Shown here one piece after another: positions 5,741-10,827 of a stretch of 64,000 bases of DNA. Source of the stretch: Candidatus Marinacidobacterales bacterium (GTDB lineage: Bacteria > Acidobacteriota > Vicinamibacteria > Marinacidobacterales > SMYC01). The position numbers and the translations under genes are program-made. The notes below the pieces were generated by a model. The model saw only the letters and a list, made by a program, of their open reading frames with translations, searched no databases and was not told where the DNA came from. The stretch covers positions 1,312,001-1,376,000 of the forward strand of contig CBDCYI010000005.1 in assembly GCA_965224085.1 (NCBI GenBank), written 5' to 3'. The number at the start of each line of letters is the position of its first letter. Position 1 is the stretch's first letter.

Positions 5741-6088
5741 TCAGGAACGCTTCGATGGCTCCTCGACGAGTTGGGTGACGGCCGACTTCGCGACTTGAAC
5801 TTTCACGCTGTCGGCCACCCTCAAGTGGATGAGATCGTCGTGCACACTGACGACGGTCCCGTAGATGCCGCCGGTCGTCAAGACACGGTCGCCATTCTTC
5901 AACTCTTCCCTCATCGTCTCCGTTTCCTGCTGGCTTTTGCGCATGGGCCTAATCATGATCAAGTAAAACAAGCCGAAGATGATGAGGATCAGTATGAACT
6001 GGTTACCGAAGAACGAACCGGGAGCCTGCCATGGTACGAACCAAGGGCTGAACATCCATGTAATGATAGTGCACTGATTTTCGGGCAT
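5741..6088 (-). CDS. yajC: Preprotein translocase subunit YajC (start 6088 or 6055)
   Basis: FYLIMIRP...LKNGDRVLTTGGIYGTV; between tgt and secD; ATG overlaps tgt stop (TGATG); the ORF-track call is over-extended. Confidence 0.93.
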   Translation of the reverse strand: MPENQCTIITWMFSPWFVPWQAPGSFFGNQFILILIIFGLFYLIMIRPMRKSQQETETMREELKNGDRVLTTGGIYGTVVSVHDDLIHLRVADSVKVQVAKSAVTQLVEEPSKRS

Positions 6089-7215
6089 CAAGCCGAAGGC
6101 GCGTCCAATCGTTCGGAAAGCTCTTTTCGGAGCGTTTCGAAACGATCTTCTTCGATGGCGCGGCGCATGCGCCGCATGAGCTCCAAGTAGAAATGGAGAT
6201 TGTGGATGGTGTTGAGCGTCCGCGCCGTCATTTCTTTGGAGACGAACAGGTGTCGCAAATAGGCCCGGGAAAAGGTCCCGCAAGTGTAGCAGGAGCAGTC
6301 CGAATCGAGCGGCCCGTGGTCGTCGGTGTAGCGGGCGTTCTTGATCGCGAGCTTCCCAGTGCTCGTGAAGAGCGTTCCATTGCGGGCGTTTCGCGTGGGC
6401 AGCACACAATCGAACAAGTCCACACCGCGGGCGACGGATTCGATCAGGTCGCCCGGCGTTCCCGCACCCATAAGGTAACGCGGGCGATCCGCGGGCAGCT
6501 CTGCAGTCGACATCTCGGTCATCGCGCGCGTCAACTCCTTGGGCTCGCCCACCGCGAGGCCCCCGATCCCGTAACCGGGAAAGTCGAGCTCGGCGAGCTC
6601 CTTCGCGTGGTCGCGCCGAATGTTCTCGAAGACGCCGCCTTGAACGATGCCGAAAAGCGCTTGCTCTTCGCGGGACTTCGCTTTCAGGCACCGGCGTGCC
6701 CAGGCGCTCGTTCGTTCAGTGGCCTTGTGCACAGTGTCTTGCTCCGACGGATAGAGGAGGCACTCATCGAGAACCATCGCGATGTCCGCGCCCAGCTTTT
6801 CCTGGATCTCGACGGCTTTCTCGGGGCTGAGCGCGTGCAAGCTTCCGTCCAGGTGCGAGCGGAAGGTCACGCCTTCGTCATCGACGCGTCTGAGCGCGGC
6901 TAGGCTTGCGATTTGGAACCCGCCGCTATCCGTGAGAATGGGCTTCCGCCACGCCATCATCCCGTGAAGGCCGCCCAGCGAAACGACTCTCTCGGCACCG
7001 GGACGCAGCATCAAGTGATAAGTGTTCGAGAGAACGATTTGGGTGCCGAGCTCCTCCACTTGTTTCTGTGTGAGCGTCTTCACCGAGCCCTGTGTCGCCA
7101 CGGGCATGAACGCAGGCGTCTCGACCATCCCGTGCGGTGTCCTCAGGACGCCGCGCCGTGCCGCGACGGACCGAGCCCGAACCGAGAACGAAAACGACGA
7201 ATCGGATTGCGTCAT
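6088..7215 (-). CDS. tgt: Queuine tRNA-ribosyltransferase
   Basis: TPAFMPV, NTYHL, TDSGGFQ, DCVLPTRNAR, CxCxxC...H zinc site. Confidence 0.98.
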   Translation of the reverse strand: MTQSDSSFSFSVRARSVAARRGVLRTPHGMVETPAFMPVATQGSVKTLTQKQVEELGTQIVLSNTYHLMLRPGAERVVSLGGLHGMMAWRKPILTDSGGFQIASLAALRRVDDEGVTFRSHLDGSLHALSPEKAVEIQEKLGADIAMVLDECLLYPSEQDTVHKATERTSAWARRCLKAKSREEQALFGIVQGGVFENIRRDHAKELAELDFPGYGIGGLAVGEPKELTRAMTEMSTAELPADRPRYLMGAGTPGDLIESVARGVDLFDCVLPTRNARNGTLFTSTGKLAIKNARYTDDHGPLDSDCSCYTCGTFSRAYLRHLFVSKEMTARTLNTIHNLHFYLELMRRMRRAIEEDRFETLRKELSERLDAPSA

Positions 7216-7349
7216 GCTCTTGCTTTATTGTCTCTCAGAAAAACGCCGAGTCGCTCTTGGCATACGTTGTGACTTGCTTTACGAAGTATGGCTCCCTGCT
7301 AACATCTTCAATCCAAAAGCCTCGAGGTTGACGTCGAACGAATTAGGCC

Positions 7350-7378
7350 TTGACAGGCCATATAGCCTTCTTTATGCT
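7350..7378 (+). promoter_or_regulatory. Near-consensus sigma70 promoter
   Basis: TTGACA (7350-7355)-N17-TATGCT (7373-7378). Confidence 0.75.
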
Positions 7379-7420
7379 ACATCTAGTATGCCAAGGGCAG
7401 ACTCAAACGATTTCTAGTGT
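7374..7420. promoter_or_regulatory. Tandem NrdR-box-like operators
   Basis: ATGCTACATCTAGTAT (7374-7389) and AAACGATTTCTAGTGT (7405-7420) match acaCwAtATaTwGtgt at 11/16 and 12/16; starts 31 bp apart; box 1 overlaps the -10/+1. Confidence 0.55.
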
Positions 7421-7596
7421 TGTGGCTCTTCGAAGCAAACAGCGTTCTTTGGACCTCGCGTCCAGAGAAGAAACTGTTTGAGTTTCTTGGCGTGCGAGCG
7501 GAAGTTCGAGATGTCATTTAGTAAAATTTCGATGTTGCAACCAAGTGACGTGTTCGGACCCCTTCGCTCTATCCCCTAAGGAGAGGAGGCGATTGT

Positions 7597-7671
7597 ATGG
7601 CAAAGAAAAAAGCTGCAAAGAAAAAGGCTAAGAAAAAAGCCACCAAAAAGAAAGCTGCAAAGAAGAAATAG
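7597..7671 (+). CDS. 24-aa Lys/Ala-rich small basic protein (histone H1-tail-like)
   Basis: MAKKKAAKKKAKKKATKKKAAKKK*; RBS GGAGAGGAGG 7 nt upstream; own promoter and terminator. Confidence 0.85.
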   Translation: MAKKKAAKKKAKKKATKKKAAKKK

Positions 7672-7696
7672 CGACTTCCTCAGGGGTATCGAGAGC

Positions 7697-7725
7697 GGGG
7701 GTGAGTCCTTCACCCCCTTTTTTTT
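7697..7725 (+). terminator. Rho-independent terminator
   Basis: GGGGGTGA-gtcct-TCACCCCC followed by T8. Confidence 0.9.
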
Positions 7726-7742
7726 CAGCGTCAGAATTAGCA

Positions 7743-8678
7743 TTAACGATCTGCTTTTTTCGATGACACTCTCTCCAATTTGGAGTCGCACCCAAGTTTA
7801 GAGAGCTTCATCACCTGGAGTGAGTCCTGAATGCCTGATCGCAGAACGTAACGTCGGATCGCCCGAGCTACTCCCGCTTCGTCGTTGGTTTCGGTTTCTT
7901 CGAAGCCGCGCTCGCGAAGCTCTTGGGTGGCGTTTTGCATTACCACACCCATCCCGGCGTGCTCCAGCATATCTAGATCGTTCCAGTTGTCTCCGATGGC
8001 GAGCGTTTCAGACAACGGTATTCTCAAACGTTCGCTCACGAAACGAAGCGCCGCGGACTTCGTCGCTTCGGCTGCCAGGACATCGAGCAGAGCGAGGTCG
8101 TCAACTGGATATTCTGTGCGCGCCAGACTTACTTCGTTTCGTCGGGCGCCGAGCTCCGTATTCAGCAAAGTCGCGAAGCTACGGATGACCGAGACGCTGT
8201 TCGCGAAGCCGATCTGGACCGGGTCGCGCTCGAGTCGTATGACGTCGGTCCAAGCAGGTGGGGGAGTCGATCGAGTCAGATAGCGCAAGAGGTGCGGGAG
8301 CTCGCGCGCGCTTTTCCTTAGAATGAGATGGCCCTCTGCGTTGGGGCCATCATGCACGACGACTTCCATCGCGCTGCGCTCCGCGATATCGAGCACCTGC
8401 TCGGCGACGGGGCGCGCGAGGAGACGCCGCCTCAAAATGGGGCCGTCGATCCCTTCCATTATGATGGCGCCGCTATTTGCGACGACGAACGCGTCGAGGT
8501 CGAGCGCCCGCAAGTAGGGAAGGACAGAAGGAAAGCGGCGGCCAGTGACGATGGCGATGGCGACGCCTGCCGAGGCGCACTCCGCGAGGGCGCGGTGATT
8601 CTCAGCGGGGATCTCGTGAGACGAGCTCAGCAGGGTACCGTCGAGGTCGACGGCGACGAGACGATAATTACCGCTCAC
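7743..8678 (-). CDS. Cof-type HAD-IIB family hydrolase
   Basis: AVDLDGTLL, IVTGRR, K..AL, AIGDNWNDLDML motifs; likely GTG start at 8678 overlapping the upstream gene. Confidence 0.92.
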   Translation of the reverse strand: MSGNYRLVAVDLDGTLLSSSHEIPAENHRALAECASAGVAIAIVTGRRFPSVLPYLRALDLDAFVVANSGAIIMEGIDGPILRRRLLARPVAEQVLDIAERSAMEVVVHDGPNAEGHLILRKSARELPHLLRYLTRSTPPPAWTDVIRLERDPVQIGFANSVSVIRSFATLLNTELGARRNEVSLARTEYPVDDLALLDVLAAEATKSAALRFVSERLRIPLSETLAIGDNWNDLDMLEHAGMGVVMQNATQELRERGFEETETNDEAGVARAIRRYVLRSGIQDSLQVMKLSKLGCDSKLERVSSKKADR

Positions 8679-10827
8679 GATAAGGAGAGTTGAAACCGTC
8701 CCAGATCGTGACCTCTTCGATGGTGTCGGAAGGCTCGATGCGGTCCACGATCTCCATCCCTCTCGTGACTTGCCCGAATACCGTGTGTAGGCCGTCGAGG
8801 TCAGGCCTCGGCAAGTGGGTGATGAAGAATTGGCTGCCGGCGGTGTCTTTGCCGTGATCCGCCATAACGAGCGTGCCGCGCGCGATGGGCCGCGTGTTGA
8901 TTTCCGAGCGGATGGCATAGCCCGGACCGCCATTGCCGTCGCCGCGTGGATCCCCGCTCTGGACGAAGCCGTTGGGCACGACGCGATGGAAGGAGAGGCC
9001 ATCGAAAAAGCCCTGCCGCGCGAGACGGACAAAATTTCGAACCGTGAGCGGCGCATCCAGCACGAACAGCTCGAGCTCGATCGTGCCCCCCCGGCTCGTG
9101 CGGATGAAGGCTTGGGGTGAATAGGGTGGGCTCACATAAGGCTCGTAGGTCCCGAGGCCCTGCTGGCTGGGCCGTGCGATCACCCGCACGTTTTTCGACC
9201 CGCCGTGTCTCAAGATCGACGCGGCTCGGATGCGGACGAGATAGTTGGTGTCCTTGAGCGCTTCGCGCGCCATCGATTCGGCTTCGGCCGCATCCAGCTT
9301 GGCGAGCGCCGCGAGAAGCTCTGCTTTGACCCGAGGCTCGTTGGAGCTCTCGATGAGGAAGGCCTGTTTGACGGGCGCCACACCGTCACGCGCTCGGAGC
9401 GCCGCGAGGCCGCGCGCGGCGGCCAGCCGCTCGAACGGGTCCTTTGCCGTCAAATGCTGAATAAGCACCGTGACCGCACCGCCCGGATCGCGCGTCGCGA
9501 GCGCGGTCAACGCGTGCGCCCGAACCCGAGGATCCAGCTCGTCCACCATCGTTCGCAGGAGCGCTACGCTACGCTCGGACGCCAAGCGTCCCAACAAATC
9601 GGCGAGGGCCGCTCGGACCCGCCAATGCTTGTCTTGGCCGAGGCCCGCCAAAAGAAGCCAAAACCCGTTGGTGTCTTGGCGCGCGAGTGCTCCGAGCGTG
9701 AGCCCACGTATCCATGGGCTCGCGCTCCCGAGCCGATCGATGAGAGGCTCGACGGCCGTCTCCGCGCGCAACTCCGCTAACGCTTTCAGCACTTCGGTCT
9801 GAACATAGCGGGTGTCCCTGTCCAAGAGTGGCACGAGATCATCGGCGCGTGCATGCAGCCGATGGGCTCCCGCGGCGCGAATAGCCTCGATGCGGACGCT
9901 CTCGTTCGGGTCCGCGATGAGGAGGCGTACATAGTCCTGCGCTTGTTCTGAGCTGATGGATCGCAGCCCTCGTGCACCCCAATACCGGAACTCGGGGTTC
10001 CTCGAACCGGCGTAAAAGCGCAGGATGGGAGCGAGCTCGTCGCCCGAGAGTGCTGTGGCTGTCCAAGCCGCGGGCCACCATACGAAACGCGGCGTGCTCC
10101 CCTGGGTCGCAAGTAGTCCCCAGCCGTAGCGAAGGCTATCGAGCCGCGCTAGCGCGAACAAACCGAGGCGCAAATCGAAATGTGGATAGCTCAAAGCCGA
10201 CGCTTGCACATCGTCGCTCCATTGGTAGGGCTCTCCGCCTTTCGGCATCCGGGCGAGAAGCGTCGTCGCGATCGCCTCGGCAGAGCTGGCATCTCCGTTT
10301 TTCCCGAGTGCTTCCACCGCTCGGGCTCGAACCCGCTCGCTCGTGTCGTCCAAAAGCTCGGTCAAACGGTCGATCGCGTCCTTAGGCAGCTCGTCTTCCA
10401 GAAGGCCGAGTGCAAACGCAGCTGTTGCACGCACATAAGGCGACGCGTCATCGAGAAGGGTTGCGATGGTGAGCGCGGCACCAGGGCCGCCGATACGGGC
10501 GCGCACGAGCGCGGCCTGCCCTCGGACTCTGCCAGCGGGATCGCTCAGCCTTGCCTCCACCTCGCCGTCGCCGAGAGAGCGCTCGTCTTCGAGCTTCATG
10601 AGCCGGGAGAGCTTGCTCTCGAGGGTCGGACCGGCCGGTGTCACAGGCGCTGACGCGCACCCCGCGGCAATCCAGATCAAGAAAAAGGCTGCCGGCAAGC
10701 TGACGAAAAAGTACAGCGGCTCGACTGGGCCGACTGCGGAGAGCCGAGCGAGGAGCGAGGGGACGTGCGCGCGAACGAGGCGTTCGCGCGCACGGATCAG
10801 TGGTATTGGGCGCAGCCGCCGTGTCAT
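8668..10827 (-). CDS. HEAT-repeat lipoprotein with C-terminal cyclophilin-type peptidyl-prolyl isomerase
   Basis: AAGC lipobox-like site, many D..VR..AA.ALG repeats, FHRVVPN..Q.GDPRGDG.GGPGY and GSQFFITH; true start may be downstream. Confidence 0.9.
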   Translation of the reverse strand: MTRRLRPIPLIRARERLVRAHVPSLLARLSAVGPVEPLYFFVSLPAAFFLIWIAAGCASAPVTPAGPTLESKLSRLMKLEDERSLGDGEVEARLSDPAGRVRGQAALVRARIGGPGAALTIATLLDDASPYVRATAAFALGLLEDELPKDAIDRLTELLDDTSERVRARAVEALGKNGDASSAEAIATTLLARMPKGGEPYQWSDDVQASALSYPHFDLRLGLFALARLDSLRYGWGLLATQGSTPRFVWWPAAWTATALSGDELAPILRFYAGSRNPEFRYWGARGLRSISSEQAQDYVRLLIADPNESVRIEAIRAAGAHRLHARADDLVPLLDRDTRYVQTEVLKALAELRAETAVEPLIDRLGSASPWIRGLTLGALARQDTNGFWLLLAGLGQDKHWRVRAALADLLGRLASERSVALLRTMVDELDPRVRAHALTALATRDPGGAVTVLIQHLTAKDPFERLAAARGLAALRARDGVAPVKQAFLIESSNEPRVKAELLAALAKLDAAEAESMAREALKDTNYLVRIRAASILRHGGSKNVRVIARPSQQGLGTYEPYVSPPYSPQAFIRTSRGGTIELELFVLDAPLTVRNFVRLARQGFFDGLSFHRVVPNGFVQSGDPRGDGNGGPGYAIRSEINTRPIARGTLVMADHGKDTAGSQFFITHLPRPDLDGLHTVFGQVTRGMEIVDRIEPSDTIEEVTIWDGFNSPYRER

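Follow-up and report, generated by a model that had tools for sequence, protein, structure and literature searches.

Several tiny proteins of the ribosome, among them bL37, bS22, bTHX and the eukaryotic eL41, are extremely basic, measure about 24–33 amino acids (aa) and were long missed by annotation. Very small peptides are also encoded by dual-function small RNAs (sRNAs) such as SgrS/SgrT, RNAIII/hld and SR1/SR1P, which are structured RNAs of a few hundred nucleotides (nt) with their own promoter and terminator, and the leaders of ribosomal-protein mRNAs, like RNA thermometers, are mRNA structures that are autoregulatory or sequester the Shine-Dalgarno (SD) sequence. Here we describe a unit to be compared with all of these. 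It lies at positions 7350–7725 of a 64,000-nt stretch of DNA (the window, whose positions are used throughout) from Candidatus Marinacidobacterales bacterium (assembly GCA_965224085.1, contig CBDCYI010000005.1, positions 1,312,001 to 1,376,000, forward strand), and it carries an unannotated short open reading frame (sORF) for a peptide of 24 aa (15 Lys, 7 Ala, 1 Thr, 1 Met).

Longer polypeptides of similar composition are known. AlgP and PhaF have low-complexity Lys/Ala repeats whose number varies between species (PMC12818456, PMC9239181). The KPAA-repeat tail of PhaF is described as binding RNA through its lysines, upstream of or next to SDs, and AlgP as associating with polyphosphate granules (PMC12818456). 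The chlamydial histone-like proteins HctA (Hc1) and HctB (Hc2) are highly basic, Lys-rich DNA condensers; the length of Hc2 is reported to vary with the number of its Lys-rich pentamers, from 165 to 237 aa (PMC2848022), and translation of HctA to be repressed by the sRNA IhtA (PMC3469542, PMC4355289).

The microprotein shares the Lys/Ala-rich, low-complexity repeat of the H1-like proteins, and like the chlamydial ones it is Lys-rich and variable in repeat number; it matches no curated family model in Pfam or NCBIfam, has no second domain and stays well short of 100 aa. AlgP and PhaF tails run to 100–300 aa, sit on folded domains and contain proline, whereas the microprotein and its relatives have 14–62 aa, no proline, no other domain and a structured mRNA of their own. 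The chlamydial proteins are much longer, are controlled by a trans-acting sRNA and belong to another phylum; here the candidate control is the 3′ untranslated region (3′UTR) of the microprotein's own mRNA. Tiny ribosomal proteins have a fixed length and a specific sequence, whereas the family described here is a variable repeat with a mean column identity of 38%, and neither a conserved length or sequence nor an NCBIfam match was found for it. The unit belongs to none of these three groups: it lacks a model match, a second domain, proline and a fixed length.

With autoregulatory and other SD-sequestering mRNAs the unit has in common a covarying 5′ leader before a small basic protein gene and an SD that is predicted to be paired. 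Unlike them, it has the predicted partner of the SD 3′ of the stop codon, with the whole ORF as the loop, and it matches no Rfam family at E < 1. Like the dual-function sRNAs it is a structured RNA with its own promoter, terminator and small peptide; here, however, the peptide is polycationic and repeat-like, and the constraint at codon level is stronger than that on the RNA loop carrying it. The hydrophobic, membrane-spanning character of type I toxin-antitoxin peptides is absent from all 983 codons counted below, and in place of the co-directional genes that attenuation leaders regulate, 17 of 18 loci of the window's type (type 1, see below) have a convergent gene downstream. What is new is a free-standing, repeat-variable oligolysine peptide together with a new structured mRNA.

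On balance we favour the reading that the unit is a translated gene for a polycationic microprotein, that a dedicated structured mRNA gates its synthesis and that the peptide binds polyanions. A consensus-like sigma-70 promoter and an intrinsic terminator would delimit an RNA of about 340 nt, itself under selection, whose 5′ leader (about 200 nt) forms two covarying domains. Once complete, this RNA is predicted to loop out the A-rich ORF by pairing of the SD with a block that follows the stop codon, so that ribosomes would load mainly during transcription or once this helix opens. The product (24 aa here, 14–62 aa in relatives, with runs of two to five Lys/Arg split by one to three Ala/Thr/Ser) may feed back by stabilizing the closed form, as may the general cation or ribosome status. 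By analogy with the proteins above, the probable ligands of the peptide are nucleic acids or other polyanions; the peptide would act non-specifically on DNA, RNA, polyphosphate or ribosomes, as a free-standing counterpart of an H1-like Lys/Ala tail.

Genes so small and of such low complexity escape gene callers and homology searches alike: even the paralogue in the window's own genome goes unnoticed by profile searches. The unit is nevertheless kept, as two copies, in two bacterial families. Provided that it is made, the peptide comes close to the simplest polycation encodable by a cell, and would offer a clean system in which to study charge buffering of DNA, RNA, ribosomes and polyphosphate. 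Its mRNA is a new candidate cis-regulatory RNA, combining a covarying leader of about 200 nt with an SD partner 3′ of the stop codon.

Conservation and paralogous types

A DNA search with positions 7340–7730 gave matches in 26 of 41 related genomes, including all 18 of family f1, seven of the eight of f2 and none of the 14 of f3. When the part from SD to terminator was searched across the class, f1 (18/18) and f2 (7/8) gave the same counts, f3 gave none in 28 genomes, and three weak matches appeared among 146 other genomes; G027, the sole f2 genome without a match, is counted in that tally only. Judged by these matches, the unit is conserved in one order of Acidobacteria, across two families.

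The exact 3′UTR pattern was also scanned against a public collection holding one genome per species. It occurred in 21 stretches, nearly all titled Acidobacteriota, Vicinamibacteria or Candidatus Marinacidobacterales (an order of class Vicinamibacteria), and the unit was present in 20 of them. One, a 2.5-kb contig labelled Gemmatimonadota (L028), has a typical f2-type unit, MAKRRRKAAKKSKKKTSKKKK; the label likely reflects mis-binning of a short contig of a metagenome-assembled genome. Another, labelled Phycisphaerales (L029), matches all 22 specified bases at 938–962 in G+C-rich DNA, with no sORF and no terminator; by a rough estimate, about 0.07 such chance matches are expected.

Altogether 44 distinct units were gathered from Vicinamibacteria-type Acidobacteriota. 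Every one has the −35 hexamer TTGACA, with a spacer of 17–18 nt and a TAYSCT-like −10; downstream of these come an SD, a K-rich ORF that opens with ATG or GTG and closes with TAA or TAG, and a terminator. The sequence-only reading of the window, a first interpretation made without database searches, had described a stand-alone transcription unit with promoter, leader of about 210 nt, ribosome-binding site, ORF and terminator. All of these parts are present, and that description is borne out. That reading had also allowed for the remnant of a longer gene, collapsed by deletion or misassembly; this is ruled out, as start, stop and SD are kept in all 44 units across their whole range of lengths and the same sequence appears in several independent assemblies.

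The units fall into two paralogous types, between which one (L055) is borderline. Type 1 (n = 27) has a long leader, 172–239 nt from the −10 to the start codon, and adjoins a HAD hydrolase gene and usually tgt as well. Within the available flanking DNA of 18 type-1 loci, tgt flanks the unit in 15 and the HAD gene is adjacent in all, convergent in 17. The sole locus with this gene downstream and co-directional is L012 (genome G029), at 1471–2568. In 18 type-1 units the 14 nt 3′ of the −10 (ACATCTAGTATG...) are invariant. Type 2 (n = 17), seen in f1 only, has a short leader of about 100–160 nt and lies downstream of an enolase-superfamily gene (PF13378); it lacks the first leader domain (D1, see below) and retains the ORF and 3′UTR. 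The window's genome holds a type-2 unit too, on contig C4 at about 585,220–585,410, minus strand, encoding MAKKKAAKKKTTKKKAAKKKAAKKK. Comparison of the loci indicates an ancient pair of paralogues, both of them stable in their gene neighbourhoods.

Searches made for other ends turned up tiny stand-alone K/A ORFs in other families, each with its own TTGACA promoter, SD and terminator and with different UTRs. They encode 29 aa in L060 (f9), 21 aa in L061 (f8), where the 5′ end is again CTAGTATG, 30 aa in L062 (f19), 33 aa in L084 (f5) and 20 aa in L109 and L110 (f20, outside the class sample). The true range of K/A microprotein genes is probably wider than seen.

Coding constraint on the sORF

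Codons were counted in 42 distinct ORFs, giving 983 after the start: K597, A247, T79, R27, S23, V8 and G2, with no others (61% K, 25% A, 8% T). There are no acidic residues and, apart from the eight Val, no Leu, Ile, Phe, Trp, Met, Tyr or Cys. Purine-only codons, counted in a subset of 29 ORFs (429 codons), comprise 274 AAG, 140 AAA, 13 AGA, 2 AGG and no GAA or GAG. G is tolerated at the third codon position, where it is silent, and sometimes at the second, where it turns K to R, and never at the first, where it would turn K to E. Both codon families are used for Arg (AGR and CGN) and for Ser (AGY and TCN), a pattern for which explanations other than selection on the residue are hard to find. 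The suggestion of the sequence-only reading that selection acts on the peptide beyond the nucleotide repeat is thereby sustained: residues are restricted, GAR is absent and Arg and Ser each draw on two families. Its remark that each KKK contains an AAG is correct for the window and fails as a general rule, the orthologue L007 having AAA-AAA-AAA.

Translation signals agree across the 44 units. Codon 2 is GCN, with each of the four wobble bases represented (GCA, GCG, GCT and GCC); 37 units start with ATG and 7 with GTG, 25 end in TAA and 19 in TAG, and the distance from the end of GGAGG to the start is 7–9 nt in 39. The median peptide length is 24 aa. Synonymous choice is biased to A/U, with GCU + GCA making up 64% of Ala codons against 24% in the genome's long ORFs, and AGR 70% of Arg codons against 10%. 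This skew is consistent with an ORF selected to be unstructured and rich in purines, or with one selected for high expression. Taken together, the codon-level case that the sORF is translated is strong, if indirect.

The structured leader

The RNA of the window has a predicted minimum free energy of −122.9 kcal/mol (z = −6.0, 100 shuffles). Single-sequence folds of 18 units gave a common architecture of three domains, D1, D2 and D3, the last comprising the SD, the ORF and the 3′UTR. A covariance model was built from seven close sequences, and 20 full-length leaders from more distant genomes were aligned to it with Infernal. Over its 68 pairs, 86.9% of cells are paired, compared with 73.0% in shuffled sequences and 38–44% when partners were slid. 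Changes on both sides occur in 53 of the 68 pairs (29.4 in shuffles), a count that none of 500 shuffles attained.

In helices 1–6, which form D1, 79–89% of cells are paired and both sides change in 32 of 45 pairs. D2 stands out most clearly: in helix 7, 96.6% of cells are paired and seven of seven pairs are compensatory, and in helix 8 the figures are 90.4% and 12 of 14. A plain MAFFT alignment contains explicit swaps, in D2 for instance from GAGCGGAA/UUCGCUC to CCGAUAGGG/CCCUGUCGG in L012. Sequence conservation of the leader peaks in the first 40 nt or so, at the base of D2 and in the SD region; the apical helices are variable yet paired. The sequence-only reading had overlooked that the leader is, on this comparative evidence, a covarying structured RNA, as it had the strong conservation of the 3′UTR and its complementarity to the SD, the paralogous unit of the genome and the K/A genes of other families. 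Mimicry of rRNA or of another locus was rejected, since blastn-short of the leader against its own genome, rRNA included, gave only chance matches of 14–18 nt.

The 3′UTR block and its predicted pairing with the SD

The 25-nt block from stop to terminator, CGACUUCCUCAGGGGUAYCGAGAGC, is near invariant across both families and both paralogue types and more conserved than the ORF. Its offset from the stop codon is 6, 7, 8 or 10 nt, so that it has no fixed reading frame; because this offset varies, the block is non-coding, and a coding extension or read-through is ruled out.

In the window the SD/3′UTR duplex has a predicted energy of −26.5 kcal/mol, against −12.5 ± 3.6 for shuffled 3′UTRs. The probability that the SD pairs with the 3′UTR is 0.95 in the window RNA and 0.58–0.98 in the eight closest units; the SD of the window is unpaired with a probability of 0.05 in the full RNA and of 0.26 if the RNA ends at the stop codon. 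The complementarity itself is real and conserved, as the compared sequences have it; as the cause of the block's invariance it is a candidate only. Co-evolution of SD and 3′UTR, looked for by duplex energy, left no signal, with means of −20.3 kcal/mol for own pairs and −20.1 for cross pairs. A pairing of the 5′ end with the 3′UTR, proposed by RNAalifold, was not adopted: it has no double-sided changes and competes with the covarying closing helix of D1.

The conserved CUUCCUC is also a candidate seed for pairing in trans. A third copy of GGACTTCCTCAGGGGTAAGAAGAGGAGG lies on contig C5 of the same genome, at about 1,602,171–1,602,200 on the minus strand, directly 3′ of a terminator-like hairpin. 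There the anti-SD block stands 5′ of an SD-like GAGGAGG and a GTG, and the next frame, of 25 aa, is not Lys-rich. Possibly this copy represents an SD-sequestering element of a related kind, placed in a different context.

Presence in RNA libraries

Among 23 RNA runs, about half of the sampled words were present in each of four metatranscriptome libraries of sponges, all made in one study. Contigs of 192–272 nt from these four libraries, 95–100% identical, cover 7396–7641 and so bridge leader and ORF. Their ends, at 7396 and 7637–7641, fall where relatives share sequence and where the repeat lies, and are for this reason read as probable assembly breaks, not RNA ends. The tgt gene, the HAD gene and 7642–7725 have little or no contig cover, which counts as evidence neither way.

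Weighing the readings

Several points weigh against a translated gene gated by its own mRNA. The evidence for translation and for the peptide is indirect and comes from sequence comparison, and the peptide's targets are something that we purely infer. Indels in multiples of three are weak evidence of coding, given repeat units of 12 or 15 nt, and the contigs place the sequence in an RNA library, which is not proof of transcription. The alignment used for covariation was fitted to the model's structure, so that pairing is inflated. With respect to gating, the mean probability of SD:3′UTR pairing is 0.46 over the 27 type-1 units and 0.06 over the 17 of type 2, predicted folds that lack the 3′UTR still have the SD mostly paired, and both arms are near invariant, which makes covariation uninformative on this helix. 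One of three candidate long-range helices, GCUCU:AGAGC, was rejected: its upstream arm is changed in five of 18 sequences with no compensating change, and the covariation of that arm is with D2. The 3′UTR may thus owe its invariance to something else, for instance a binding site for a protein or a seed that acts in trans, the SD pairing being weak outside close relatives.

Among other accounts, it is unlikely that the RNA is the main effector, dual-function or trans-acting, with its 3′ block CUUCCUCAGGGG or its leader pairing with or titrating target SDs or an RNA-binding protein and the peptide secondary. Such a role would suit the conservation of the 3′UTR block and the first 40 nt or so, which exceeds that of the ORF nucleotides, the covarying leader helices, the assembly of the RNA from RNA libraries and the occurrence elsewhere in the genome of a third CUUCCUCAGGGGUA copy, followed by GAGGAGG, without a K-rich ORF. 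However, the peptide's composition is clearly under selection, so that the ORF is more than incidental; a seed complementary to the SD would fit very many mRNAs with little specificity, and the type-2 units have kept ORF and 3′UTR without D1. We consider it quite unlikely that the peptide is a ribosome-associated mini-protein like bL37, bS22 or bTHX whose leader is an autoregulatory operator, as in ribosomal-protein mRNAs. A tiny, extremely basic peptide starting MAK(K/R) behind a strong SD and promoter, and conserved bases at the helix junctions of the leader, are what one might expect of it, and tiny basic ribosomal proteins do exist in other phyla; a length that changes from 14 to 62 aa by gain and loss of repeats, at low identity, is unlike proteins that fill a fixed rRNA pocket, and there are two paralogues per genome, no NCBIfam or Pfam match and no similarity of the leader to rRNA or the rest of the genome. 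The preferred reading, a gated gene for a polycationic peptide, takes up what the sequence-only reading had proposed for the peptide, namely a minimal nucleoid-condensing, polyphosphate-binding or ribosome-associated role; the peptide interpretation is supported in kind, and its function we likewise infer.

Translation of the Lys-codon run could itself be the signal, reporting Lys-tRNA, ribosome capacity or poly-lysine stalling and remodelling or stabilizing the RNA, with the peptide a by-product. AAR makes up 60% of codons, and the anti-SD block, which begins 4 nt 3′ of the stop, would be covered by a ribosome that has reached the stop codon, so that translation and RNA conformation would necessarily be coupled. 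We nevertheless hold this very unlikely, as it leaves unexplained the absence of acidic, Gly/Pro and hydrophobic residues and the change of K to R via CGN, and no downstream gene is controlled, the unit ending at a terminator that faces a convergent gene. That the unit is non-coding, the A/G-rich stretch serving as an unstructured protein-binding platform in a structured RNA, appears highly improbable. Purine-rich sequence rarely has stops (a frame +1 stop occurs in only two of 29 sequences), so that chance alone would leave a frame open, and the ORF does lie in a loop closed by conserved complementary arms, but the start at a fixed SD distance, the conserved stop, the GCN wobble at codon 2, the two-family Arg and Ser codons and the absence of GAR from 429 purine-only codons all speak for a read frame. 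Practically no credence is left for an attenuation-type leader peptide of a downstream operon, for which one could cite a short ORF directly 5′ of an intrinsic terminator: gene order contradicts it, as the sequence-only reading had argued, since the downstream HAD hydrolase gene is unrelated to lysine and convergent in 17 of 18 type-1 loci, and type-2 units have the same architecture in another gene context.

A bolder generalization can also be drawn, which we regard as doubtful. Acidobacteriota would have a widespread class of unannotated, genetically encoded oligolysine peptides that serve as tunable macromolecular counter-ions, made by ribosomes and analogous to polyamines or protamines, and their level would be set by a new RNA switch in which a post-stop anti-SD and a covarying leader together sense polycation or ribosome status and loop out the ORF.

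Features and setting of the unit

Features of the unit and its neighbours are listed in Table 1, with RNA letters for those of the transcript. The intergenic region has a G+C content of 44–48%, against 58–69% in the flanking genes. A terminator scan of the window alone found one site where 1.5 are expected; chance origin is excluded because of conservation in relatives and not by single-sequence scans. Rfam, searched over 7150–7850, gave a best match of 17.7 bits (E = 1.7; gathering score of the family 79).

Table 1. Coordinates of the microprotein unit and adjoining genes in the window
Feature	Position	Strand	Basis and remarks
Sigma-70-type promoter	7350..7378	+	−35 TTGACA 7350–7355; 17-nt spacer; −10 TATGCT 7373–7378
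Predicted monocistronic RNA, about 340 nt	7385..7725	+	Predicted start 7 nt past −10; predicted end at U-tract
Leader domain D1, long branched hairpin, closing GUAUGCCAAG/CUUGGCGUGC	7386..7495	+	Folds and covariation
Leader domain D2, hairpin, closing GAGCGGAA/UUCGCUC	7496..7569	+	Folds and covariation
CCCCU and SD region AAGGAGAGGAGGCG	7573..7591	+	CCCCU 7573–7577; SD GGAGAGGAGG at 7580–7589, ending 7 nt 5′ of the ATG
sORF, 24 aa + TAG, MAKKKAAKKKAKKKATKKKAAKKK	7597..7671	+	ATG at 7597; ORF read and codon-level conservation
Near-invariant 3′UTR block CGACUUCCUCAGGGGUAUCGAGAGC	7672..7696	+	CUUCCUC 7675–7681 complements SD GAGGAGG; AGGGG 7682–7686 complements CCCCU
Intrinsic terminator GGGGGUGAG-UCC-UUCACCCCC + U8	7697..7725	+	9-bp G+C-rich stem 7697–7717, then T8; conserved in relatives
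tgt (queuine tRNA-ribosyltransferase), divergent neighbour	6088..7215	−	PF01702, E = 3.9e-157
Cof-type HAD hydrolase, convergent neighbour	7743..8600	−	PF08282, E = 1.1e-32; C-terminal 285 aa of 437-aa ORF 7743–9056

The hexamer TCTAGT occurs twice near the 5′ end, at 7382–7387, spanning the predicted transcription start, and 31 nt further on at 7413–7418; the former copy is invariant and the latter mostly conserved. Type-2 units and the distant unit L061 likewise have CTAGT(A/G) after their −10. A block TTCAATCCAAAAGCCTCGA at about 7309–7327, some 25–40 nt 5′ of the −35 in the region between tgt and the unit, is conserved across several genera and could be the tgt promoter or 5′UTR, an UP-like element or an operator.

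Database searches and other Lys-rich frames

Four peptides searched against Pfam and NCBIfam gave no family at E ≤ 10, a result in which low-complexity filters may hide matches. Ten peptides were looked up among about 15 billion predicted proteins, and none was present; a six-frame search with the 24-aa peptide returned only the peptide itself, and with a natural 41-aa member as query none of 477 candidates scored. A profile hidden Markov model of the peptide recovered one of the two copies in its own genome and two of 300 other genomes, and cannot show absence. A search for MAKKK starts behind an SD proved unspecific: of 30 loci examined, most were ordinary proteins starting MAKKK, among them long ORFs whose starts are by eye FtsA-like or response-regulator-like. 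Searches of an open-access library of papers found no description of such a microprotein. The idea that the peptide substitutes for polyamines was dropped as unsupported, the genome having five matches to spermidine synthase (PF01564).

Other Lys-rich frames and repeats were seen in the same genome. On contig C5, at 1,701,167–1,701,739 on the plus strand, a frame of 190 aa starts with about 100 residues of K/A/T/R repeats and continues as a Pro-rich acidic tail; by its sequence it looks H1-like. Further K/A/T-rich frames lie on C4 near 1,736,285 and 1,758,552 and on C11 near 133,208. A multi-copy element with GGCGTCGGCTCTACTCAGGGGTAGAGGTGTAAGCTGGTGCGAAGT occupies at least 12 sites on C2, C5 and C9, and a repeated frame, SPIVTRITARRLCPGRRSRRAKRAKP, occurs at many sites.

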